64,000 nucleotides of DNA from Octopus vulgaris (lineage: Eukaryota): contig OX597815.1 of NCBI GenBank assembly GCA_951406725.2, positions 183,024,001-183,088,000 of the forward strand, in the 5' to 3' direction. The position numbers and the translations under genes were made by a program. Under the pieces are notes generated by a model. That model did no database searches, was not told where the DNA came from, and saw nothing but the letters and a program-made list of their open reading frames with translations. Positions 8,597 through 45,400 of the stretch are shown here, one piece after another. How positions within the stretch are numbered: position 1 is the stretch's first letter; every line of letters begins with the position of its first letter.

Positions 8597-9875
8597 TTAG
8601 GTTGTCAAGAAAGTTCTTGCGGAATCTTAAATTTTGGTTTTAAATGATGTATTTTCAAATTAATTTTCGTTAAATTACTTTGACTTTATATATCATTTTA
8701 AAGGCCGTTTTTCGCTCTTCTCTAATCGTGTTACTCTTTTTTCTTTTTGAATAATTAGGCCATTTCTTTTTCCGGAACGTATACAACATGGAAAAAAAGC
8801 AAATTCGCACGATTTTCTTATTCCAGTTCAAGCTAGGCCGAAAAGCTGCTGAAACAGCTCGCGATATCAACGATGCGTTTAGGCCCAGGAACCACTAATG
8901 AACTTACAGCAGCATGGTGGTTCAAGAAATTTCATAGCAGTGATGAGAGTCTTGTAGATGATAAGCGTAGTGGTCGGCCATCGGATGTTGACAACAATCA
9001 ACTAAGAGCCTTAGTCGAAGCCAATCCACGCACAACTGTTCGAGAGCTTGCTTCTGAATTAGACGTAACGTTTACGACAATTTCCAACCACTTGAATGAG
9101 ATTGGAAAAACAAAAATACTTGAGAAATGGGTGCCACACGAATTGAACGACAACCAAAAAAAAACGCTGTTTTGAAATGTCGTCTTCCCTTCTTTTATGC
9201 AACAAGAACAACCCGTTTTTCGACCGGATTGTGACAGCGATGAAAACTAGATTCTTTACGACAACGGGCGACGCTCAGCTCAGTGGTTGGACGCCGACGA
9301 TGCTCCACGACACTTCCCGAAGCCAAAGTTGCACCAAAAGAAGGTCATGGATTTGTGGTCTGCGGTCGGTCTCATCCATCACAGCTTTTTGGATTCAGGC
9401 GAAACCATTACAGCGGAGAAGTACTGTCAGCAAATGGATTAAATGCATAAGAACTTCGACAACAACAGCCAGCATTGGTCAATAGAAAAGGACCAATTTT
9501 TCTTCACAACACTCGGCCGCACGTCGAACAACTGACCCTGCAGAAGTTGAACGAATTGAGCTACGAAACTCTGCCTCATCCGCCATACTCACCAGATCTC
9601 TCGCCTATCGACCACCACTTTTTCAAGCATCTCGACAACTTCCTGCGTGAGAAATGCTTCAAAAGCTAAGACGATGCCAAACATGCCTTCAACGACTTCA
9701 ACGCCACCAGAATGCAGGATTTTTATGCTACTAGCATAAATAAAGTTGTTTCGCGTTGGTAAAAGTGTGTTGATTCTGATGGTGTTTATTTCGATTAACA
9801 AAGTTTTGTTTGAGCCGAGATATGTGCATCTGAATTTAAAGGTTAAAAACCGCAAGAACTTTCTTGACAACCTAA
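8597..9875 (+). mobile_element. Mariner transposon (Hsmar1/cecropia-like), frameshifted
   Basis: Perfect TIRs TTAGGTTGTCAAGAAAGTTCTTGCGG with TA TSD. Transposase MEKKQIR..., WVPHEL and HPPYSPDL motifs split across frames. Confidence 0.95.
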
Positions 9876-18541: not shown

Positions 18542-22929
<4,388 letters not shown>

Positions 22930-28305: not shown

Positions 28306-28904
28306 CTATTTCTTTATTGCCCACAAGGGGCTAAACGCAGAGAGGACAAACAAGGACAGACAAGCGGATTAAGTCGATTATATCGACCCCAGTGTGTAAC
28401 TGGTACTTATTTAATCGACCCCGAAAGGATGAAAGCAAAGTTGACATCGGCGGAATTTGAACTCAGAACGTAGCGGCAGACGAAATACCTTATTTCTTTA
28501 CTACCCACAAGGGGCTAAACACAGAGAGGACAAACAAGGACAGACAAACGGATTAAGTCGATTATATCGACCCCAGTGTGTAACTGGTACTTATTTAATC
28601 GACCCCGAAAGGCTGAAAGGCAAAGTCGACCTCGGCGGAATTTGAACTCAGAACGTAGCGGCAGACGTAATACCTATTTCTTTACTACCCACAAGGGGCT
28701 AAACACAGAGAGGACAAACAAGGACAGACAAACGGATTAAGTCGATTATATCGACCCCAGTGTGTAACTGGTACTTATTTAATCGACCCCGAAAGGATGA
28801 AAGCAAAGTTGACCTCGGCGGAATTTGAACTCAGAACGTAACTGCAGACGAAATACGGCTACACATTTCGCCCGGCGTGCTAACGATTCTGCCAGCTCGC
28901 CGCC
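28306..28904 (-). mobile_element. SINE family A head-to-tail trimer within one TSD
   Basis: Three tails and one head. TSD CACTTAATAGAATAC at 28291-28305 and 28913-28927. Confidence 0.92.
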
Positions 28905-32054: not shown

Positions 32055-33000
32055 AGAAAAAAAATGTATTTTTTGCACAAACCGTTGTCTAGGTGAACGA
32101 TTACCACTAGAACCTTTCCTGCCCGGAACATGGAATATTCCCTAATGGACAAATCAATGTGAAGATTTCCGAATTAGCTAATTGATCTGTGAGACGAGAG
32201 GTGAAAATATGTTCTTGGATCCTTTGAGATCTCAATGCTGAAAAGATCAAATTTCACTCGGATCATAAAGGACTGTCTCGGGTGTTTTGTAATAATAATT
32301 TGGATGTTTGTCGTTAATGAGCCTATCTATCATGCTCAGAAGATTGAAGATACAAACTAATAAACCCCATCCCCCAACACTGAAATCCCCTAATCCATGG
32401 AGTGGAGATCTACTTTTTGACACCGAATCCATTCTGTCACATTCAACGCTAACTTTGCAGTGGCCATTATAACACTGTCTTCTTTTCAAATGAAGGTTTT
32501 CTTGGTATATACTGATGAACTAGTTAATAACCTATTTCTTTACTACCCACAAGGGGCTAAACACAGAGGGGCCAAACAAGGACAGACACACGGATTAAGT
32601 CGATTACATCGACCCAGTGCGTAACTGGTACTTATTCAATCGACCCCGAAAGGATGAAAGGCAAAGTGGACCTCGGCGGAATTTGAACTCAGAACGTAGC
32701 AGCGAACGAAATACCTGTTTCTTTACTACCCACAAGGGGTTAAACACAGAGAGGACAAATAAAGACAGACAAACGGATTAAGTCGATTACATCAACCCCG
32801 GAGCGTAACTGGTACTTGTTTAATCGACCCCGAAAGGATGAAAGGCAAAGTGGACCTCGGCGGAATTTGAACTCAGAACGTAACGACAGACGAAATACGT
32901 CCGGCGTGCTAACGTTTCTGCCAGCTCGCCGCCTTAGACTAGTTAATAACCATGCAAGGAATCACTACGCTATTGAGAAGGAAATTATTCGAATGCAACA
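32055..33000 (+). pseudogene. Highly decayed alpha-tubulin N-terminal relic
   Basis: AQTVV*VNDYH*NLSCPEHGIFPNGQI aligns to [43 protein letters not shown] aligns to ANNYARGHYTIGKEII across a SINE insertion. Confidence 0.7.
32533..32933 (-). mobile_element. SINE family A dimer within one TSD
   Basis: TSD ACTAGTTAATAACC at 32519-32532 and 32938-32951. Confidence 0.92.
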
Positions 33001-33374
33001 ATCTAATATTTTTGACAGTTAAGTCTTTTTTTCTTTTCCTTAATGACAAATCCCGCAAATTCTTCTCTTTTTGGATACTGAAATTATTTCATCAGGTTCC
33101 TCGCCACCAAGGAGTTCCTCAGCCAACATTTTAAGAAATTCCTGTCTAGATTAGAGTTTGTCCTGTTTGAATTGTAGCTGCTTTTCAAAATATAACAACA
33201 ACAAAAAACGTATCAATCAGGTTGTAAAATATTGCATTGGCCATCTTTGTCGTGGCGGTGAGCATACATGTGATTAGACGTTGAAATTTTGTTGTGTAAA
33301 GTGATTAATATCGCGCGAGGCGTTTGCCTCCACGTTTGGAAACCTTCCGAAGAAGGTGAATTGACCCTCTAGTC

Positions 33375-34778
33375 ATGGCGACTTACGCGGGGGTCACGGG
33401 AAAGAAAAATAATGATTCGGCAATAATCGTGAAGGATGTTTTCTTTGAGAAGAGTAAACTCAAAGAATATGAAAAACTATTCAAAAGGGAGGGTGATAGC
33501 GTGAAGCTAATCCCCCCCGCGAAAGCAAAAGAGGACAAAGAAAACAAGACTGTAACATATAGAACCCAAGAAAAAAATACAAAGAAACTGGCAAGAGTGG
33601 AGATAGCAGAAATCGAAAAATGTCCGGGAGACATAATGGGGAAATCGACCTACGTGAGTAGAGGCAAGAAATTTGGTACGGTGGAGGTGAGATATGCAAC
33701 GGAAGAAATTGCAGCCTCACTGGCTACCACTGTACTAAGAGCGGAAACATTTATAATGTGGCCCTCATACAAGGGAAGAAGAGGGGTCCGGGTTAAAATC
33801 CCGAATATACCCCCAGAAGTAAAAACAGAATGGCTGGCAACAGCTATTCTAGGAGCAGCAGAAGAGGAAGTGGAGGTGGAATCCTTTAAGGAGTCCAACG
33901 TGATAAACTGGAGAGGATATGGGGTGGAACTGTGTTTGATGGCCACAAAAGAGGACATTGAAAGGTTCCCCTACAGAATAGAAATTGAAGATGAGAAAAC
34001 CCTCAGTGTAATTGTAGAGGGAAGAAAGCCAAATTGCTACTTGTGTGGGACAAGGGGGCACATTAAAAAAGAGTGCCCGTTATACGAATTCGTAGCGGAG
34101 TGCGAGCAGGAGCTCGAGAGGAGGAGTGCGGTAAATGAAAGGGAAAACATAGAAAAGGAAACAAAACAACAAGAGAAAGGAAATAATAAGTCAATGAAGG
34201 AAAAAGAAATAAAAGAAAAGAAAGAAATAGAACCAAAACAGAGTCAAGAAAAGAAAAAGGAAAAAGAAACAACAGGAAAAAAACAAGAGAGAGATCAGAA
34301 CCAAACGAAAAGAAAAGACGGCACACAAAAAGAAAAAGAAAAGGAACATAAAACACGAGAGAAAGATAGAACAGACAAAGAACCAAAAAGACAAGAGAAG
34401 GAAGAGGAAAGAAAAGAAGGCAAAAAGAGAGAAAGAGAGAAACAAAGAGAGGAGAACAAGGAAGAAATAAGCCCGAAAAGAAAAACGAGGGAAAACGTAG
34501 GACGGAAACAAGATCAAGGCTTCTACAAGTTAGTAACCTTCCATTTCTGCCCTGAAATGAAAGAATTGACAAGTAGTACGGAGGGACATATATGGGTCGA
34601 CAGGATGACCGATCAGTGGCAGGAGACTGCTCTAATCCCCGAAGAAAGAGTCGCTGAGTTCCTCAGAGCTGCCGGTGAGAGTGTAACATTTTACACGAGT
34701 GTTCGAGTGAGAGAGCGGCTGCCTGAGGGCTCAGTGATAGACTTTAGAGAATTGAAAACTATCATGGAATATGTTTAG
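33375..34778 (+). CDS. Intact ORF1/gag-like protein (467 aa) of a non-LTR-type element lacking ORF2
   Basis: Intronless ORF in a good ATG context. CX2CX4HX4C zinc knuckle CYLCGTRGHIKKEC, RRM-like N-terminal region (FGTVEVRY, VRVKIPNIPPE) and a K/E-rich linker. A SINE-like 3' tail follows at about 34970-35013. Confidence 0.8.
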   Translation: MATYAGVTGKKNNDSAIIVKDVFFEKSKLKEYEKLFKREGDSVKLIPPAKAKEDKENKTVTYRTQEKNTKKLARVEIAEIEKCPGDIMGKSTYVSRGKKFGTVEVRYATEEIAASLATTVLRAETFIMWPSYKGRRGVRVKIPNIPPEVKTEWLATAILGAAEEEVEVESFKESNVINWRGYGVELCLMATKEDIERFPYRIEIEDEKTLSVIVEGRKPNCYLCGTRGHIKKECPLYEFVAECEQELERRSAVNERENIEKETKQQEKGNNKSMKEKEIKEKKEIEPKQSQEKKKEKETTGKKQERDQNQTKRKDGTQKEKEKEHKTREKDRTDKEPKRQEKEEERKEGKKREREKQREENKEEISPKRKTRENVGRKQDQGFYKLVTFHFCPEMKELTSSTEGHIWVDRMTDQWQETALIPEERVAEFLRAAGESVTFYTSVRVRERLPEGSVIDFRELKTIMEYV

Positions 34779-35015
34779 AACTGTGAGAAGAGAGAGAAGA
34801 AAGAAGAGAAAAAAGAAAATATTGTGAACTATGTGACGAAAATGTAACCTCTCGATTCCGGGGATCGAGTGGGCATTTGCATCTCATTGTAAATATTCTT
34901 TCATATGTCATTTTTACTTTTATTTTTTCCTTTTCTTGTCATTTGCTTTCTTATTTTAAGTTCCCCGATTGTACTGTCCCCTCTATGTTCGCCCCTCGTG
35001 GGTAATAATAAAATC

Positions 35016-35305
35016 ACATGTGTATTAATAACTGAACAGCAAATGAACGAAATTAAAGGATACAACGAAGGATGTGAGATATGGAAAGCGAACTATGACA
35101 CGAATTGCCAAAAGCTATAGATTATGAGGAACTAAAAATAATGGAATACATAATGGAATACAGAGGTAAAGGCAAGTAACATTTCCATTTAACACTTTCA
35201 TTGTTTTTTTCATTATATCATACGTTTTATTCTTTTTTTTTCATTTGTACTGTGTCCCCAAATGTATTGTATTGTCCCCATCTTCGTGTGGTTCGTCTCA
35301 CCGAA
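35016..35305 (+). mobile_element. Older 3' fragment of the same ORF1-only family
   Basis: AIDYEELKIMEY matches VIDFRELKTIMEY, followed by a T-rich UTR and a TGTCCCC tail-like sequence. Confidence 0.55.
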
Positions 35306-35836
35306 TAGCATCTACTCAGTTGGTCAAGTGTGTCCTAGTTTCCGAACACTAAAGAAAATTCAAGGGTCTGTTTCTTGATACGGATTTATTTTTATCTACA
35401 AAAAAACATTGTTGACAGGACTACAGCGACCCGATTTATTTACACACTTTACTTTTAACTGAAAGTTCAAACACAATATTTTTACCAATATCTTGGGATA
35501 AGTTCAAAATATAGTATTAATTTACAGCACCGTTGATTTATATTAAATATTTTTTATATATTTTTTTTAAATGGCTTCAACACAGGACTGCTACGGTCAC
35601 CTCCATGTTTTGAGGGTTAATGCCGTCTGTTTTTGCATGGTATATTTTTCTTAATTCAAATCTCTCTTCTTGAAAGGCCTAATCCTGGACTGAAGCAAAC
35701 CGCTTGGATTTTCAGTTTATTCGGTGCCATGAGTTAAACAGCTCTATTAGAACGGTGCAGTTCCTTCCAACCGTTCAAACTACTCTGCAACACTGATCGT
35801 GCGTTTGTCGTTGACATTGAATCAATTTGATATACC

Positions 35837-36068
35837 TATTTCTTTATTACCCACAAGGGGCTAAACATAGAGGGGACAAATAAAGACAGACATAGGTAAT
35901 AAGTCGATTACATCGACCCCCAGTGCGTAACTGGTACTTAATTTATCGACCCCGAAAGGATGAAAGGCAAAGTTGATCTCGGCGGAATTTGAACTAAGAA
36001 CGTAACGGCAGACGAAATACGGCTACGCATTTCGCCCGGCGTGCTAACGTTTCTGCCAGCTAGCCACC
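35837..36068 (-). mobile_element. SINE family A (3' part of the tRNA-SINE chimera)
   Basis: Full head-to-tail copy. Shares a TSD with the adjacent tRNA. Confidence 0.92.
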
Positions 36069-36083
36069 TTGAAATAAACTACG

Positions 36084-36156
36084 CGCCCGCAGAGGGACTT
36101 GAACCCGCGACCCTCAGATTGAAAATCTGATGCTCTACCGACTGAGCTATGCGGGC
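36084..36156 (-). tRNA. tRNA-Lys(TTT)-derived copy with TTC anticodon, probably a retro-pseudogene
   Basis: GCCCGCATAGCTCAGTCGGTAGAGCATCAGA-TTTTCAA-TCTGAGGGTCGCGGGTTCAAGTCCCTCTGCGGGCG. 73-nt cloverleaf with a Lys body, G73 and one T-stem mismatch. Confidence 0.9.
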
Positions 36157-36601
36157 GGACAAATCAATTTGATATATCAAAGAAGTTTGGATATTGATTT
36201 CCCAACATACATGAATTTACACCATCTGATTACGCAGGGACTTAGTTCAATTGCTGCTTCTCTGAGGTTTGATGCGTTTCTTGATGTTGATTTTAAGTTT
36301 CAAACCAGCCCGGTTCCTTACCGTCGGCTTCGTTTCTCATGGACTACATATGCACCAATGATATCTGATGAGAAAGCTTATGAACGACAATGTTTAAGTA
36401 ACAAATGCTGGTTTTGAAACCACTAACCAGATGATTAAATGTAACTACATCATAGAAAATACATGTTGTGGTGTTTTGTACTGAGTTGATATCGTCTCGA
36501 GATATTGTTGTTGCGATAATGAAGACCAATTTATCAACCACTAATTGTTGTTTAATGTGAGCAACTGGCCAAAGTGCAATGAGTTGCTTGTATTTCGAAT
36601 A

Positions 36602-36952
36602 TTGGTCTGGTCTGGGACTCCCTTCGGTCACGACACTGACCATGGGATTGCGCCTAGAAAGTTACCCTCCTAGTCACAAGTCTGGGCAAGGTGGTTTTAT
36701 AGAAGGCCAGCAGTCGCCCATGCATACCGGCCTCCCCTCTCCATGCCACCAGTGTTATCCAATCGTAAGGCAAAGGCCGATACAGCTTGGCACCTGTGAC
36801 GTCACAACTCATTTCTACAGATGAGTGAACTGGAGCAACGTGAAATAAAGTGTCTTGCTCAAGAACACAACACGCAGCCCGGTCCGGGATTCGAGCTCAC
36901 AACCTCACGATCGTAAGCTCGACGCTCTAACCACTGAGCCATGCGCCTTCAC
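36602..36952 (-). mobile_element. SINE family D (tRNA-derived) with TSD
   Basis: Minus strand GAAGGCGCATGGCTCAGTGGTTAGAGCG...TCGAATCCCGG head. TSD ATTTCGAATA at 36592-36601 and 36953-36962. Confidence 0.88.
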
Positions 36953-38272
36953 ATTTCGAATAATACGACAGCGAATACTGAAGCTTGGACTAGTTTATAT
37001 TATAAATTTCACCTAATGTTTGCCAATTAGTTTTCTGATCACTAGTATGTGAGTGAAGGCATAGAAAATGGGAGCTCGCTGAAACCTGAGGAGGTATGAC
37101 TACGTTTGAAAGATCATAATATGGCATTGTCACGGATGGCACAGAAGACGGAATGAGAAAATATTAATTGCCAAATCAAATTAAAACGAAATCCTAAAAT
37201 ATTAGTCTTTTTTTCAGCACATTTTATTTTCTGAGTTCTGTTTTTAAAATGTTCATTTGATATTCTCTTGAAATGCAAGAATAAATGAATTTTGGTTCTT
37301 ATGAAATGTCACAAATTTAAGCAGGACAGTTTGATAGCCTTAGACAATTTCATCTGATTCAATAAAGGCCTCCGAATTTGAGAAGGTATCTTCAAACCGG
37401 AGAAAGCCTGAATGCTGGCAGAAGACGAGATTCTAATTGAAATAACCAATGTGCCAGATGTAGTGTAAAACCAAGCGACGAATTAAGTTCAAGTAGGTCA
37501 TGGCAAGATTTGAACACACTTCAAACATTTCGAAAATATAAGGTTGTCCGGAAAGTTCTGAGCGATTTTTAATATGCAAAAGGAATATGAATAATTCACC
37601 TTTCAATATATTTTTTAAGTAAATGCGGCATTAATTTTACTCATTTGAAACTTTACACAGCTACGACTGTGGAATACGAACTAATGACACACAATTTACA
37701 AATTTGGAGCCTTACTCTGTCATTTTTTCTCAGCGAATTGTCATTTTATAATACTCATCATTTTGAGTCTTTGTTGATTTGAACCACGCATCAAGAACTG
37801 TAGAATAATTTATATCAATAAGTTCATTTTTTTTCTTTTCAAATATAAACTCACTTTAATCACCATGGGACGACATAGTTCCAACTGAATTACTGAGAAT
37901 AAGTAATTTTCAGCACCATATCAGTCACAGTTAGAAAAGCGGCAACAATTAATGTAAGAACCATGCAATAATTTTGAGCACGTTGTGTGTTCAGTTGTGG
38001 AAGCGTTGGTACATGAATCTCAGTATGTGACCAAGGTGGTTTTCTGAGTGGTGCTAGTGGTGTGATGCCCTGAGTGAGTAGATTGTAATAAGTTCTGCTG
38101 GAAACAAAGGAGTACGATTTGTGTGTATTGTGTATAAACTCTGTGTGTGGATGCTGGTTTTTGTATGTTTGAAGTATTTATGTGGGTGTAAGATAGGGTG
38201 TTTTTCGTTTTCCTCCTAGCCATAGTCCAATCTTAGTTACTCACCTCATATGATGTTGAAGGTAGATATTTT

Positions 38273-38503
38273 GGCGGTGAGCTGGCAGAATCGTTAGCAC
38301 GCCGGGCGAAATACGTAGCCGTATTTCGTCTGCTGCTACGTTCTGAGTTCAAATTCCGCCGAGGTCAACTTTGCCTTTCATCCTTTCGGGATCGATTAAA
38401 TAAGTACCAGTTGCGCACTGGGGTCGATATAATCGACTTAATCCGTGTGTCTGTCCTTGTTTGTCCTCTCTGTGTTTAGCCCCTTGTGGGTAGTAAAGAA
38501 ATA
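38273..38503 (+). mobile_element. SINE family A with TSD
   Basis: TSD G(G/A)TAGATATTTT on both sides. Confidence 0.92.
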
Positions 38504-39387
38504 GATAGATATTTTGGTGTCTCTTACTGGGTACATTCCTTTTTTATCAAAGCCTCCCCTGACATGGTCTTGCTTTTCTTTTGTGTCCTCTTTTCATATT
38601 GTTTGTCTATTACGTGTGGGTTTCCTTTTCCTCCTCCTGGCTGTCTGGCTTGTTTGCCGCCGGCTGTGCTTCAGGTTGCCGGTCCAGCGGGCACGTTGCC
38701 TTAATGTGTCCCGTTGGACCGCACCTGAAGCACCTTGGTCTTCTGTCCTCAATCATTATCCTTAATTTAGTGTCGTCTGGTAATACAACAAATTCTGGCA
38801 TTTTTTCCAGATCGTTAGTAGTGGCCTGAATTATTAGGCTTAAGCTTTTGCCACACCATTTCTGTTTACCTTTTCGGAAGCTTGGAGGATGGTTACATCC
38901 TTTACGTTAACAAATACGGCTAGTATCAGCCACTCCGTCATAATTTCTGGCGGAATTCCTTCGAGGGAGATTCTAGCCGTTCTTTTCGCGGCATCAACAT
39001 TAGCTCTGCCGACTTAAAGGTTATTATTATTTTTATTATTGAGTGTTCTTTCGCTTCCTTCTCTGATGCGAATCGCACCTTTACCGTGCCAAGCCTCTTC
39101 CATCTGTTGATCTCCTCAAATCTGCTCCATATTGGTTTTAGGCATTTCTCGAAGGCATCTCTGGATGCCATCTCTACCCACTTCGTTTTCATAGACAGTC
39201 CTAAGAATGGTTATCTTTTTTTTCGTCTTCCATCATTTCTCCTGGGGAGTATCAGCCTCACATTTGATCCCTCTCCCTGTAAAATTGAATCAAACTTCTT
39301 AAGTCCGGGCTGATGTTTTGCATCTCGTCAAAGGCTTCGCCTGCGTAACTGGTTCCCTCACTGTCCTCTTGTATGCTTTCTGGTACG

Positions 39388-39906
39388 TTAAGTTAAGTTA
39401 ATTTTTTGGCTCAAAAAGCAAAAAGCAAGGCCATGTAGGGGGACATGGAGTTATGTACAGGGTTGTTCATGCAAAGAGTTCAGGCCATTTCTGGTCAAAA
39501 GAGACTTTGAACTGAGCGGTCGTCGGCATCTTCACTATCTCGTCCGTAAGCTTATTCCACGGATCCGCAATCCGGACGGAGAAAGCCCCTCCCCTTCGAT
39601 TGAGATGAAATCGTCGCAGATAGAGCCTTTCGGAGTGACCCCGCAATTGACGCTCTGGAACAGGAGTGAAGAACAGCTCTTTCGAGAGGTTACACTTTCC
39701 GCTTATGATGTTGTGAGCAAGAATGAGATCACCACGACGTCGTCGTTTTTCTAGAGAATAAAGGTCGAACGTCTTCAGCCTTTCTTCATAAGACAAATGC
39801 TTGAGACCAAGAACCATGCGGGTAGCCAGCTTCTGGACTCTTTCGAGATGATGTATGTCTTTGAGGAGATAAGGAGAAGAGGCTTGAATCCCGTACTCCA
39901 ATATTT
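39388..39906 (-). mobile_element. CR1-clade LINE 3' fragment
   Basis: LEYGIQASSPY..KDIHHLERVQKLATRM..LSYEERL..LEKRRRRGDLI..RGH..WNKL; (TTAAC)n tail; GTACGTT on both flanks. Confidence 0.88.
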
Positions 39907-40187
39907 GTACGTTGACACAATACCTCAGCTTCATCCTTACTAAAGGGTTTACACAGTTTGTCCAATTCTTCCGGAGTCGAACACACGTAAGGGAAGTCCG
40001 CCACTTCTATATCGTGTAAAAACAAAACTTTTCACACAAAACTACTCACTGCTCACCCTTAAAAGGGGGAGGGAAACAAATATGAAAACAAACCTTCCGA
40101 AGCAGTCAATGTGTTAAAACAAATGACACAAAAACACTTAATTACCAAAGATAATCACAAAAGGGAAAACCTACACAAGTATAACAA

Positions 40188-40737
40188 GATTTCTTTATTT
40201 GGCACTCAGGCCACTAACATAGAGGGGGACACTACAAGGACAGACACAACACCACAGTGGGGACAGTAAGCATAAAACGGATGAGAATGAATATTATACA
40301 ATAATGAACAATGAAATAGCTGCATGGGCCCCACTCCTCATGCAGTACCATTGGAACGTTTTTACACACTGTTATTACAATCTTGTTATTTTATCTGGGG
40401 ATTTTTCCATTAATTATCATTTTTTTCTTCAAAAATATATTTTCCTTTCTCTCTCTCTCTCTCTTTCCCACCCCGCTTTTTACCTCTTTTTTTTTAACGC
40501 TTCATATACGGCTCCAGTTCTACCAGATCAATTACTGGTGGCAGTTCATTAAACTCCACTATCGCTCCGCCCGGGTCAATTCTATCCCTGCACTTGTCTT
40601 TAAGTTTTCCGTAGGCTACCTTATCGACCACCAAGCCCTTCACTCTCTCAGGGTACGTGTCACTGGGCATTTTTACTCTTATAGTGTGCTTGAACTTCAC
40701 GATTTCCTTCTCCACTTCCTTGTTTTCTGAATAAGTC
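40188..40737 (-). mobile_element. 5'-truncated retrocopy of an ORF1-only element with 15-bp TSD
   Basis: ORF end RDRIDPGGAIVEFNEL matches RERLPEGSVIDFREL. Tail TGTCCCCCTCTATGTTAG..AATAAAGAAA. TSD ACACAAGTATAACAA at 40173-40187 and 40738-40752. Confidence 0.8.
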
Positions 40738-40809
40738 ACACAAGTATAACAAACAAGTACTTAACAGCGATCATAATTGATAGATTAAATGTGTTATTTA
40801 TCCTTTCAA

Positions 40810-42245
40810 TAAATTTCATTCAATGAAATAATTTCCATTATTATTAATGACCTATGCCCATCTTTCAGGCAATTTAAATATTCCATCAGCATAAAATTTG
40901 GTTTTGAAGACAAAGTTATCTAAATGCAGTTTGACTCCATCTAAATCGTTAAATGTTTTCCTTTGCAATGAGTTATGTAGAGGCAAAAACAAGTGGTAGC
41001 CGGATGGTGCAATATCAGGAGAATATGGTGGATGGGGTAAGAGATCCCAGCCAAGTTCATGTAACTTTCTTCGGGTAGCCAAAGACACATGTGGTCGGGC
41101 ATTGTCTTGTTGGAACACTACCCCTTTCCTGTTCGAAATCTCCGGCCTCAATTCTTTGATTTTTGGTGGGTTCCAACTTAACCAGCTGGCGGCAGTACAC
41201 ATCAGCATTAATAGTCTGGTTTTGTGGGAGAAGCTCGTAATAAGTCTTTATGATCCCACCGAACACAAAGCATAGCTCTTTTGGCATGGATGTTCATCTT
41301 TGGTTGCTGTTTTGAGGGATCCTTATGCAAACTCCGGGGCTTTTTTCGCACTACATTTTCGTACACAATCTATTTTTCATCTCCAGTCACCAGTTGTTTC
41401 AAAAACGACATGCTTTCATTCCGTTTCAAAAGCATATTACAAATAGGATACCGGTCTAAGCAATTTCTTTCTGGGAGTTTGTGAGGGACCATACATTATA
41501 GCAAGAAATGTACCCTAGCTTCACTAGATGTTCATGAGCCATTTTTGTAGAAACTTCCAACTCCTCTGCAAGTTCTCTACTCGTGATATTTCAGTTTTCT
41601 TCGATTTTTTTTTCCTTCAAAACAACTTCATCCAGTTTTGAAAGTCTTCCACTGCGACTGTCATCTTCCAAGCTAAACTCTCCAGCTTTAAATTTTGCAA
41701 ACGGCCTTAGAACAGTTCATTCACCAACAGCATCATCATCACCATAAACTTTACAAATGTTTTTGCAAGTCTTTGCAGCATTTTCTCCTTTTTCATAAAG
41801 GAAAAGCACAACAACGCGAATATGACATTTTTGGCGAGCTGGCAGAAACGTTAACACGCCGGGCGAAATGCGTAGCCGTATTTCGTCTACCGTTATGTTC
41901 TGAGTTCAAATTCCACCAAGGTCGACTTTGCCTTTCATCCTTTCGAGGTCGATAAATTAAGTACCAGCTACGCACTGGAGTCGATATAATCGACTTAATC
42001 CGTTTGTCTGTCCTTGTTTGTCCTCTCTGTGTTTAGCCCCTTGTGGGTAGTAAAGAAATAGGTTATCCATGTCAAATGTTAAAGGGTAACCGGAATGGAA
42101 GATAGATCTATTTTTAGTCAGGGACAAAGAAATGCACTGCGACTTCAAGCAACACCGAAATGTTAACTGCTACATTTCAGGTGTGTTCAATGAAGTGCTA
42201 AAGGATTTAGCTTAAAAACGCTCAAAACTTTCCGTATAACCTAAT
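40810..42245 (-). mobile_element. Mariner transposon relic with an inserted SINE
   Basis: QQDNARPH, HPPYSPDIAPS and ELLPQNQTINADVYC motifs. TIR at 42213-42245 matches a TIR at about 37540-37572. Confidence 0.88.
41833..42060 (+). mobile_element. SINE family A
   Basis: Full core and tail, ending AAAGAAATA|GGT. Confidence 0.9.
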
Positions 42246-42450
42246 CTATCGCGAAGCGTCCGGTGCTCCATAGTTGTAAACAAATACCATCCAACGCTCT
42301 GAAGACTCGCTCAACTTGATCGTGCGAGTGTGGTGAGAGGAAAATGAAGAATAGACTCGTGTAGAAACAAAATAAGGAATTATCAAGCATTCCTGCTCAT
42401 ACAAAGCAGCTAACTAAATGCCTGTAAAACTACTGTATTTTTTTTTCTTT

Positions 42451-42481
<31 letters not shown>

Positions 42482-43345
42482 AAATGTAATATTCATCGGT
42501 TTTCTATCAGTCGAGAATTTATGAAATCTCAAACGTGTTCTTTTCATTTTCTAACTGCACTACCTGACTGAAATGTCAACAACAACAAAAGAGTTGTGCA
42601 GTAATAGTTCTAAACTAGACTTTTTTTAATATTCCTTAAAAGTAAACGTTTATAGTCGTAAGAAAATTATTACACTGTAGCTAGAGTTACTTCCCTTACA
42701 AATTAAGTCCAGTAGAGTTATTTCCCTCTAACCGTTCCATTTTGTAGCAATTGTTTCTCATTTTTGATAATCCATAATTCTGGAGAGTAAAAAAAAAATG
42801 GATTAGGAGAGTGGGTAAATTTATCCATGTTGACTCGGTGAGGTTTGGACATTACTTGCAACGTTTTGGTTTGTAAGAGTGGAAGGTTAGCAGAATTGTC
42901 AGGGCAGCGAACAAAATTCCAGCCAGCCTCTCCTTGCGTCTCATTACATAAGCCAAGTCTCACCGGATTGAACTTTACTTAATCCTTCTGAGATAAATGA
43001 AATTGTCACTAGTCAAATACTGGAATCGATATAATCGATTAGCGTGCGGCCTTGTGTTAGTGTTACAGAAAAATATTAACTAGTGTGCGTACATGTATGT
43101 GTGCACGCGCATATATATACAAATAAGAAAAGAAGAAAATGGAGGAACAGATTCCTTTCAATCATCAACTTACAGATAATACCAATTCATATAATTTATT
43201 AACTAATTAAATAGGAACATCCAAATCCAACAGAATAAAACAGAGTAAAACAATATACATCAATAAGTAAGATATATATATATATATATAAATGAAAGAA
43301 AGAAAGAAAGAATGAATGGAGTTGAACGACGATTTAACAAAATTC

Positions 43346-43439
43346 CTTTATTCTCGACATATGTTTCGAAGACTGCATATTCCTAATTTCGAAGGAATAA
43401 GGGGTGCATTATGCCGCCTTCTCATCAGGATGAACAAAA
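43346..43439 (-). ncRNA. Type I hammerhead ribozyme in a fold-back element
   Basis: Minus strand TTTTGTTCATC-CTGATGA-GAAGGC.GCATA...TATGC.GTCTTC-GAAA-CATATG-TC^GAGAATAAAG. Canonical core with a palindromic helix III. Confidence 0.85.
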
Positions 43440-43725
43440 ACTTTTAGATGACTGCACACACGGAGTCCATTATCGCTATGGACTCCGTGTGGGCAGTCAT
43501 CTAAAAGTTTTTGTTCATCATGATGCTGACATAAGTTCCTTGTTAAATCGTCGTTCAACTCCATTCTTTCATTTATTTGTATTAAAAAAACACACAAATT
43601 TCCACACGAAAGCACGTGATCTCTGCCCTTGGCATGTAGCTTCAACCGTGTTTTTCTGACGTGAATTTGCTACCCGGGTATCGGTTAACTGAATTATCCA
43701 TACTAGGATAGTTCATTCAACTACT

Positions 43726-43759
<34 letters not shown>

Positions 43760-43761
<2 letters not shown>

Positions 43762-44340
43762 CGTTGAGATTCTGCAGACGCCAGCTTGGCTTTTTCTTCC
43801 GTCTTAAACCTCACTTCGTTCGTGGCATATTTGGTTCCCCTTGTAAGGTATGCCACGTCGTTCCAAACTGGTCTTAGACATAACTCTACCGCTTCTTTAC
43901 TGGCCATGTCCAATTTTTTTTTAGTTTTCATCAAAAACGATTTGTAAATAACGGTGCAACGTATTGCTTTATGCGTTGTTTCGCTGAGAGGGATAACTTT
44001 AGCTTCGTTCCCCTCCCTTGTATTTCATTAGCTCGTCATGATCACAGTTTCGGCTCTTACGAGTTACAACCAGCGGCTGCTGCAAAATTCGTCTTTTTTT
44101 CCCTTTTACAAGTTCTTCACCTGTTGGCATACTTTTTAAAACGGTACTGCTCCCACAGTTCATAAATTTGGTTGCTGTACTTCTGCTTGAAAAAGGTTCC
44201 TCGTTGGACCTGTCTTTCACTGGAGATTTATTCATTCTTGTAATAGCTAGGCGTAAATGTTCCATAAAAATTATATTTCCCCATTTCACGCAAGAGGGGG
44301 AAACGTTAACAAAATCTGCCGTAAAATAAAGTGTTTAAAA
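43760..44340 (-). mobile_element. 5' part of another degenerate ORF1 element
   Basis: KLDMASKEAVELCLRPVWNDVAYLTRGTKYATNEVRFKTEEKA matches STYVSRGKKFGTVEVRYATEEIA. Confidence 0.7.
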
Positions 44341-44479
44341 TAACACTGCAAGTTTAATTCTTTATTGGGCACGAGGCCTGAAACACAGAGAGGGCGGTAC
44401 AAGGACAGACAAGGCAGTACACGCGGGTACATAAAACGTAAAACTATGAATGAAAATAAATATATGTTCAAATGACGTC

Positions 44480-45400
44480 TGTTGAGTTAGGCGTAAACGT
44501 TTTCTATGGGGTGAAAAGAGGTTAAATTCTCGAACATCCCAGAAGCCATATAATGCCACAGCTTCACGCTAGTTGGTGATTTATAGATCAATCATGTGAA
44601 ATTGTGGTGGCTCACGCGTTAGGCCTCAACAGTTTTACTTAAGAGTAGATTAAAGGAGATGGTTAGCTTTATCATTAATAACACGAATATTGCTTTTGGG
44701 AAGGATATCTAAACAAATTAAAGCTATGTCGCCTTTTATTAGCCGATATATATTTATCATCTTGAGAACTTAATGATCTATACGAAAGGGAAAAGATAGC
44801 TTTTGTCAAACAACTTAATGGTTGCTACAGATGTGGTGGTTATATTCTTATTCCTCACTACATTTTGAATATTTGCTTGAGAAAATATTCAGATTTCAGT
44901 ATTAGTTACTCGGTAGACGAGGTTAACTTAGGTATTATGTTAGTTTGTGAGGGGTAAAAAGATTACAACTAGAATTTATGATAAAAACTGATAACTTAAA
45001 TTTTTATACTGTGTACTTCCCTAGGCACAGAACTGAATTCCGCGAAGAATTTTTTTCTATAACGTATTTTCTAATCAAGTTATTAGGTATGGCAGGTTTC
45101 CGAGTTTTGTGTATTTTGGAAAGAATTAATGATGCATTTGAAGAAAACAAGGTTGTGTTGGTTAAATGTTTTAACTGTTGCTTGAAAAGACAGTAAGAGT
45201 TTGAGAAAATTTGAATTGATTTCTAGTTACGGTTTAATGTGGGTAGGATGTGTACCATGTCACCTCTGTTTGGGTGTAATTAAGGACTTCCACTCATAAA
45301 TCACAAATAATCTTTTGATGGTGAACAGCAATTACTTAAAGAAGAAAATCAAATAATGCCCTGTCACCTTAAATAAAGGATTCATTGCACAATTTTGCAA
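44480..45400 (+). pseudogene. Possible very old alpha-tubulin relic
   Basis: Short collinear matches only (ILEH..IMP, YHLENLM, LRFNV, ENQIMPC). Confidence 0.3.

Follow-up and report, generated by a model that had tools for sequence, protein, structure and literature searches.

How does an element spread that encodes a zinc-knuckle protein and neither endonuclease nor reverse transcriptase, and why does it end in a tail like that of a SINE lying close by? The question is raised by a 64,000-nt stretch of Octopus vulgaris DNA (contig OX597815.1 of assembly GCA_951406725.2; hereafter the window, whose own positions are used below). The element and its immediate surroundings comprise the following features.

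33252..33272 (+), left remnant of an older ORF1-type element that hosts the unit; 20/21 nt match locus L172 before the common ACATGTG
33266..33272 (+), left copy of a 7-bp target duplication, ACATGTG; its last 4 nt also fit the element start
33269..35015 (+), family A ORF1-only non-LTR unit; alignable with copies of 87-99% identity from 33269 through the tail
33375..34778 (+), intact ORF1 of 467 aa (open reading frame)
33516..34022 (+), two tandem RRM-like domains, predicted from an AF2 model (about aa 48-135 and 136-216)
34032..34079 (+), single CCHC zinc knuckle (Pfam PF00098)
34095..34514 (+), Lys/Glu/Arg-rich low-complexity linker, then a family-specific C-terminal region (from sequence and alignment)
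34967..35015 (+), 3' tail with a short 4-bp hairpin, common to LINE and SINE
35016..35022 (+), right copy of the target duplication ACATGTG
35016..35305 (+), 3' part and degenerate tail of the older host element; 41 genomic matches

The initial annotation had placed the element at 33241..35013; the unit itself is real, but alignment with family copies sets its 5' start at about 33269. Full-length copies of family A are ~1780 nt long, and the window copy is ~30-35 nt shorter at its 5' end. The tail motif starts at 34975, 197 bp past the ORF stop, and the tail is identical to that of a SINE copy (35838-35878) at 36/41 positions, which bears out the annotated arrangement of an intact 467-aa zinc-knuckle ORF about 200 bp before a SINE-like tail. 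A 15-mer of the tail is matched 12 times in the window, as compared with 0.06 matches expected. The tail hairpin has only 4 bp, and changes on both sides were seen at 3 of the 4 pairs in 15 aligned rows, a weak signal. When the ORF2 of the partner LINE described below was searched against the window, no relative was found near the ORF, confirming that no endonuclease or reverse transcriptase follows it; the sole match was an unrelated reverse transcriptase at 19831-20253.

The window copy landed at a look-alike site, GAGCAT^ACATGTG, within an older ORF1-type relative whose uninterrupted form is present in L172. The sequence at 35016-35305, previously listed as a diverged relative, does belong to an older ORF1-type element, but it is the flank of the family A unit, with 33252-33272 as its other side. 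Among the matches to 35016-35305, an ORF1 knuckle lies upstream in L172, L176, L177, L181 and L182, and an ORF2 was found in only 1 of 11 loci, 3' of the match. The window copy departs from the usual pattern of the units: it is 5'-clipped, bordered by a duplication of 7 bp and nested in an older relative.

Regarding the protein, Pfam placed a zf-CCHC knuckle at aa 220-235 (E 8.6e-5, above the curated cut-off), and the knuckle was matched in 15/15 family members. Sequence searches of Pfam and PDB explained the knuckle alone, which resembles retroviral nucleocapsids at E values of 0.001 and weaker. An AF2 model covering aa 4-239 of the 467 residues, built on a 106-row alignment, reached a pLDDT of 92.7; folding without an alignment gave a pLDDT of 41 and was set aside. 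The best Foldseek matches of the model were tandem RRMs (E 1.8e-4), and VIA gave a Z of 9.2 for the first RRM-like domain (rmsd 2.6, 78 residues aligned) and of ~7 for the second. From this fold we infer that the ORF1 product is an RRM-RRM-knuckle protein with a predicted nucleic-acid-binding function. Note that L1 ORF1p was absent among the fold matches listed by Foldseek and VIA, an absence that excludes nothing. A word search returned 10 ORF1 homologues, all from Octopus vulgaris, and a profile search reached proteins of O. bimaculoides and Argonauta.

A genome search with ORF1 scored 150 of 14,631 candidates, and part of the 150 was examined. At each of the 30 best loci (30/30) a copy extends from the ORF into the tail, and 75 full-length units (~1780 nt) from 26 loci all end in the tail. 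The tail is thus part of the unit, in these 75 copies as in the window copy, and its origin as a separate SINE insertion is excluded. None of the examined copies continues into an ORF2; continuation of most copies into one had been named beforehand as a refutation. A rare autonomous element with an A-type ORF1 may exist among the rest of the 150 scored matches. Family A is accompanied by other ORF1-only families, B, B2, C and D (454-498 aa), which carry variants of the tail and are intermixed with it in the same head-to-tail trains. Note that the 26 ORF1-first loci were hand-picked, mostly from clustered matches, so that trains are overstated among them.

Are these families decayed leftovers of a complete LINE? 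Comparison of the N-domains (Nei-Gojobori, single copies) gave dN/dS values of 0.11-0.15 among the ORF1-only families at dS above 1.2 (A-B, A-B2, B-B2 and C-D), which shows purifying selection on their ORF1 after ORF2 loss. In a 25-row ORF1 tree, the A/B and C/D clades, long-branched and each supported at 100/100 or 100/99, lie outside all sampled LINE ORF1 clades. Since these two deep clades stand apart from the sampled LINE ORF1s, the ORF1-only families are old lineages and did not arise by recent deletion. Note that the tree rows labelled 'unk' (L183, L185, L186, L151 and L153) carry an ORF2 by blastn, which the motif label missed, and that row E has a long branch and an unsure placement. 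The dN/dS values, the tree and the existence of several families support the earlier view of an ORF1-only, non-autonomous, long-lived and diversified family. The homology of ORF1 with the ORF1 of the partner LINE (32%, N-domain) and the likeness of its knuckle to retroviral nucleocapsids would also fit a recent internal deletion of an autonomous LINE, an LTR gag remnant or a host gene. However, this explanation is hardly credible in view of the long separate branches and the low dN/dS within the ORF1-only clades, and the tail, the target duplications, the RRM-type fold and the fact that no terminal repeats were seen speak against it as well. Target duplications and 5'-truncated copies (L130 and the window) are present in this multicopy family, and the unit is, as judged by a structure with an ORF1 homologous to LINE ORF1 and no ORF2, a HAL1-like ORF1-only non-autonomous LINE.

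Contigs from four sequencing runs, presumed to be RNA, cover the 5' part of the ORF; none of them bridges the tail and the next unit with enough letters, and where transcription begins cannot be read from contigs. RNA editing would leave a surplus of A>G changes; over 76 units there were 36 A>G and 14 T>C, which is not significant once base composition is taken into account (p 0.55). Of the 10 changes private to the window copy, 6 are A>G.

The unseen autonomous L1/Tx1-like LINE with the same tail, which had been postulated from the window, was found as a 5.2-kb LINE standing behind many trains. Its tail agrees with the window tail at 42/47 positions in the copy on C7 and at 46/49 in a variant at L188. 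The ORF2 of this partner contains Exo_endo_phos, RVT_1 and zf-RVT domains (APE-RT-zf), and its best solved relative is human L1 ORF2p (E 5.6e-65). With two ORFs, an APE endonuclease, a reverse transcriptase and a C-terminal zf-RVT, the partner belongs to the L1/Tx1 superfamily. Among named homologues the best carries the label Tx1 149-kDa protein and is only 26% identical, and a target preference with duplication was observed, with 15/20 loci at one site (Tx1-type duplications are ~12-16 nt); a place in the Tx1 clade is thus suggested by target behaviour and one weak label rather than by a tree, and we call the LINE L1/Tx1-type. The 138 scored copies of its reverse transcriptase are 96-100% identical and many have a 1132-aa open frame: the LINE is young. 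A frame of 2499 aa was rejected as an artefact of N gaps and simple repeats. Autonomous LINEs also form arrays of 4-7 copies on C27, C30 and C58. At L064, L065, L048 and L191, the reverse transcriptases are 96-100% identical and the 5' halves only 68-90% alike, which corresponds to ORF1/5'UTR replacement on a constant ORF2.

The LINE and its passengers insert at one site, GATTTGAAC^ACATGGAGGAAA, with a duplication of ~12-13 nt, in a ~1.1-kb Helitron-like repeat. Of 20 loci chosen for their LINE score, 15 have the right half of this host repeat 3' of the LINE, 2 a train member, 2 look-alike sites and 1 a gap. Exact empty sites numbered 197, with 0 in the control, and 10/10 fetched empty sites lie in the same repeat. 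Helitrons are recognised by a 5' TC, a 3' hairpin with CTAG and the lack of a target duplication; by eye, the host repeat starts with TC, ends in a hairpin and CTAG and has no duplication, and it is from these features that we call it Helitron-like. Its middle is a decayed captured ORF1 fragment (tblastn E 1e-6). Both the insertion site and the trains in this repeat had been missed by the earlier reading. A second site further 3' in the host repeat, with a ATTCCAGTCT-type linker, holds older A and B units at L047 (C4a), L049, L021 and L023. Exceptions to the main site are LINE variants and one A unit at a different site (L187-L192); these loci, together with L105 and L106, show other common sites with AACTGAATACTC-type and CCCGACAGGACG-type linkers, seemingly in another repeat.

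The trains might also descend from a single capture by the host repeat, which then multiplied them by rolling-circle transposition, as they sit at one position of the repeat, whose left half precedes 17 of the 26 ORF1-first trains, and as the repeat holds a captured ORF1 fragment. However, over 66 locus pairs the closest units differ by a median of 0.95% and the host flanks by 5.1%, and the two distances are uncorrelated (rho -0.01). In the closest locus pairs, units 0.17% apart are found in hosts that differ by 3.6% and 5.5%, and units 0.17-0.6% apart sit in hosts 2-8% apart. That the units are far closer than their hosts, with no correlation, indicates independent entries and not hosts that carried trains. 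Train content also differs from locus to locus, the 197 hosts mentioned above are empty, and 5'-truncated insertions occur at L086 and L130. Spread by rolling-circle transposition is contradicted by the host and unit divergence unless ectopic conversion maintains the similarity of the units, and we consider it very improbable.

The trains run head to tail, contain several ORF1-only families and the LINE, and reach 22 units; they are interstitial, with the host repeat on either side, and are not chromosome-end arrays. The exact 32-nt A-type tail occurs 131 times, and the first 30 occurrences comprise 28 A units and 2 LINE copies with the same tail. The sequel of the 28 A tails is another A unit (15), a LINE (10), the right half of the host repeat (2) or, in the window, the older relative (1), where members of one array are not independent. 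The order is not strict, a LINE being followed by A or B units in C2b, C10b and L079. Wherever a train contains two A subtypes (6/6), the 5' side is occupied by the one that differs least between loci, suggesting that the youngest-looking units stand there. Along C7 the linkers shift step by step, the same linker variants turn up on different contigs, and the 5' and 3' copies of the duplication are often not alike; the recurrence across contigs suggests that the donor RNA carries the linker. At L050 and L081, trains contain inverted, truncated units that face each other.

Taken together, the reading that we prefer, with a probability of about 0.8, is that the window holds a 5'-clipped ORF1-only unit whose RNA was likely copied in trans by the ORF2 of the 5.2-kb L1/Tx1-type LINE, the ~49-nt tails of the two being nearly the same, that such units build tandem, site-specific trains, and that the SINE moves via a sister LINE. 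Specifically, the unit's own RRM-RRM-knuckle protein would package the unit RNA, and the tail hairpin would recruit the ORF2 of the partner. Target-primed reverse transcription would then rebuild the site at the 5' junction, so that units would be added mostly on the 5' side, with the left flank of the site and one duplication copy left behind at the 5' junction of every insertion. Full-length RNAs may carry the short linker of the donor site, which would help 5' joining and spread linker variants, and long uniform runs may be further lengthened and homogenised by DNA recombination.

It could be argued that the trains grow mainly at the DNA level, by unequal crossing-over and gene conversion, and that only single insertions are retrotransposed. 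Units within C7 (units 5-10 and 13) and C22 (units 5-7; 1 and 4) differ from each other at 0-1 positions, and units at subtype boundaries are mosaics of two subtypes; these identical neighbours and mosaics can be accounted for by recombination no less than by insertion, and they suggest that recombination also acts in the trains. As the main source of growth, however, it is unlikely, although it keeps some chance of being right, because trains mix families whose proteins are 30-70% apart, the nearest relative of many units lies on another contig and not beside them, and the polarity of the two-subtype trains is the same in all six, with the linkers of C7 shifting stepwise. A further alternative is that transcription begins in an upstream unit and continues into the LINE, the resulting RNA being copied as a multi-unit block (5' transduction). 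The LINE stands directly after a unit in 16 of the 26 ORF1-first loci, an ORF1-only unit lies directly upstream in 8 of the 20 loci picked by LINE, and orders such as C-D-LINE recur (L083 and L087), as such hitchhiking would predict. On the other hand, 7 of the 26 ORF1-first loci end in the right half of the host repeat without a LINE, and single units have their own duplication (C17a and the window). In addition, a train of 39 kb exceeds what one event of target-primed reverse transcription copies. Block copying is quite unlikely to explain the trains.

The SINE and the remaining relatives in the window are as follows.

32534..32915 (-), tandem SINE pair, the second from about SINE position 46
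35838..36061 (-), SINE copy with related tail, then AGGTA
38276..38502 (+), reference SINE copy, inside a broken relative
38628..39306 (-), broken distant ORF1 relative (tblastn E 4.9e-23)
40188..40737 (-), relative truncated at its 5' end, carrying a variant tail, flanked by a 15-bp duplication (40173-40187 and 40738-40752) and placed immediately ahead of where the 38000-40170 element starts
43767..44021 (-), relative of the ORF1 N-terminus, broken (tblastn E 1.9e-7), preceded by a variant tail at 44358-44463

The diverged relatives listed by the initial annotation survive in part: 38628-39306 and 43767-44021 are ORF1-related and 40188-40737 is tailed, but the former are distant broken families with 25-46% identity to ORF1 types over short stretches only, and no ORF1 match was found in 40188-40737 (-). 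The lone tail reported at about 44355-44460 is a variant tail, 73% like 40188-40737, and precedes the broken relative at 43767-44021. Two further pieces lie in the stretch 38000-40170: the 3' part of an unrelated LINE (89% to L071) and a SINE on the opposite strand. A short repeat at 43380-43560, near the distant relative at 43767-44021, contains an inverted pair (~43424-43470 and ~43482-43528). Elsewhere in the window, 18889-20331 and 21929-22711 (-) are near-identical 3' parts of an unrelated LINE bearing a reverse transcriptase (RVT_1 E 1.3e-30), with a long TA repeat between them, and the broken ORFs at 8873-9485 (+) and 40852-41700 (-) may be pieces of mariner-type transposases. The output of a repeat finder on the whole window was dominated by microsatellites.

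For the SINE, the initial annotation had proposed that one LINE mobilises it together with the ORF1-only lineage. SINE tails are followed by AGGTA 39,202 times and by AACAT 3 times, and 10 of them lie within 4 nt of ACATGG, whereas ACATGG-type sites follow the ORF1-only family and its LINE. The AGG may belong to the SINE's own end, which would weaken the comparison of AGGTA with AACAT; the ACATGG count of 10 agrees in direction. Sister LINE families have tails ending in AAAGAAAT, like the SINE, and a sister LINE was found in the SINE head, at SINE position ~45-61, in 8 of 20 fetched loci taken from mid-ranked matches. SINE tandems restart at the same SINE position at which the sister LINE inserts. 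The SINE tail is about equally like that of the partner LINE (37/42) and those of the sister LINEs (30/34, 26/27 and 37/43), and an enzyme that is permissive might prime in another way on another RNA end, so that a single LINE could still serve both. However, the different 3' flanks and the sister LINE in the SINE head contradict that proposal, which we now regard as improbable. A sister LINE with a GTAT-type target, and not the partner, likely mobilises the SINE; the SINE and the ORF1-only family have a common tail lineage and likely separate enzymes.

SINE tandems at 28306-28904, 32534-32915 (-) and G000:C1:4607435-4608389 have a 184-bp period, with later copies starting from about position 46, and C1 carries a run of six SINEs. 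None of the SINE copies in 32400-45000 was matched by Rfam. A tRNA-like gene at 36083-36156 (-) adjoins a SINE head (Rfam tRNA, 70.5 bits; ARAGORN Glu, anticodon TTC); we take its body to resemble tRNA-Lys, so that it is possibly a pseudogene or an anticodon variant. Of the named octopus SINEs OK, OR1 and OR2, OR2 is mentioned by name in PMC4758252.

A broader picture, which we offer tentatively and would rate somewhat below even odds, is that of a guild in which sister L1/Tx1-type LINEs share an RNA tail and divide targets (a relative's ORF1 fragment within a Helitron for one, the head of its own passenger SINE for another), old ORF1-only lineages retain their proteins and adapt their tails to the active LINE, and a landing site carried at the 5' end of each full-length RNA rebuilds the next target. 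If true, these would be HeT-A/TART-like polar arrays without telomeres. The genome contains a natural series, with near-identical tails on different ORF1s and sister ORF2s with different targets, making three questions testable: why a non-autonomous LINE keeps its ORF1, by what means ORF2 selects its tail and how the choice of target shifts. The LINE clade that likely drives a SINE with at least 39,000 exact-tail copies is indicated as well.

The combination of HAL1/HeT-A and Tx1 behaviours appears to be new. In a literature search, with Repbase, subscription journals and supplements outside its coverage, no account of this octopus system or of its combination of features was found. The HAL1 paper is reportedly that of Bao and Jurka (2010). 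A repeat annotation of O. vulgaris reports 13 recently active L1-Tx1 families with 421 insertions, and its main text, as far as it was accessible, is without the words 'ORF1' or 'nested' and without ORF1-only units, trains or target sites (PMC13282606).

Known ORF1-only LINEs include HAL1, HeT-A and Ag-Sponge (PMC5786205, PMC5753468). Like HAL1 and Ag-Sponge, as portrayed in the accessible parts of these papers, the octopus families encode ORF1p alone, have a LINE-like 3' end and multiple origins, and depend on an L1-superfamily partner, inferred here (PMC5753468, PMC5786205). Unlike them, the octopus partner is Tx1-like and target-specific, the units lie in trains at one site, and one partner tail is common to several families whose dS is saturated or nearly so. 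We file the octopus family as an independent analogue, not as HAL1; the ORF1 of HAL1 proper derives from the coiled coil-RRM-CTD ORF1p of the L1 clade, and the model obtained here has two RRM-like domains and a knuckle.

Tx1 LINEs and SINEs target non-autonomous DNA transposons and stack there in Xenopus and crocodilians (PMC4494074, in the sections available). As in Tx1L within Tx1D of Xenopus and Tx1-Mar and SINEU within Mariner-N4_AMi, LINEs and passengers share one transposon site, and tandems sandwich the duplication, which was read there as sequential insertions (PMC4494074). In contrast to these, the octopus passengers encode a protein, the host is Helitron-like and its insertion site belongs to an ORF1 fragment captured from a relative, up to 22 units form a train, and a sister LINE targets the SINE.

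Drosophila telomeres consist of polar arrays of ORF1-only and autonomous families (PMC13534243). Like HeT-A and the telomeric Jockey elements, as far as the available text of that source describes them, the octopus system has ORF1-only lineages with autonomous partners, polar arrays and clades that beget new families (PMC13534243). Unlike HeT-A and TART, however, the octopus arrays are interstitial, occupy dozens of loci in a small DNA transposon, have target duplications and are of L1/Tx1 type and not Jockey. ORF1-only passengers and polar arrays, best known from fly telomeres, can thus apparently form inside chromosomes, given a site-specific LINE that regenerates its target.
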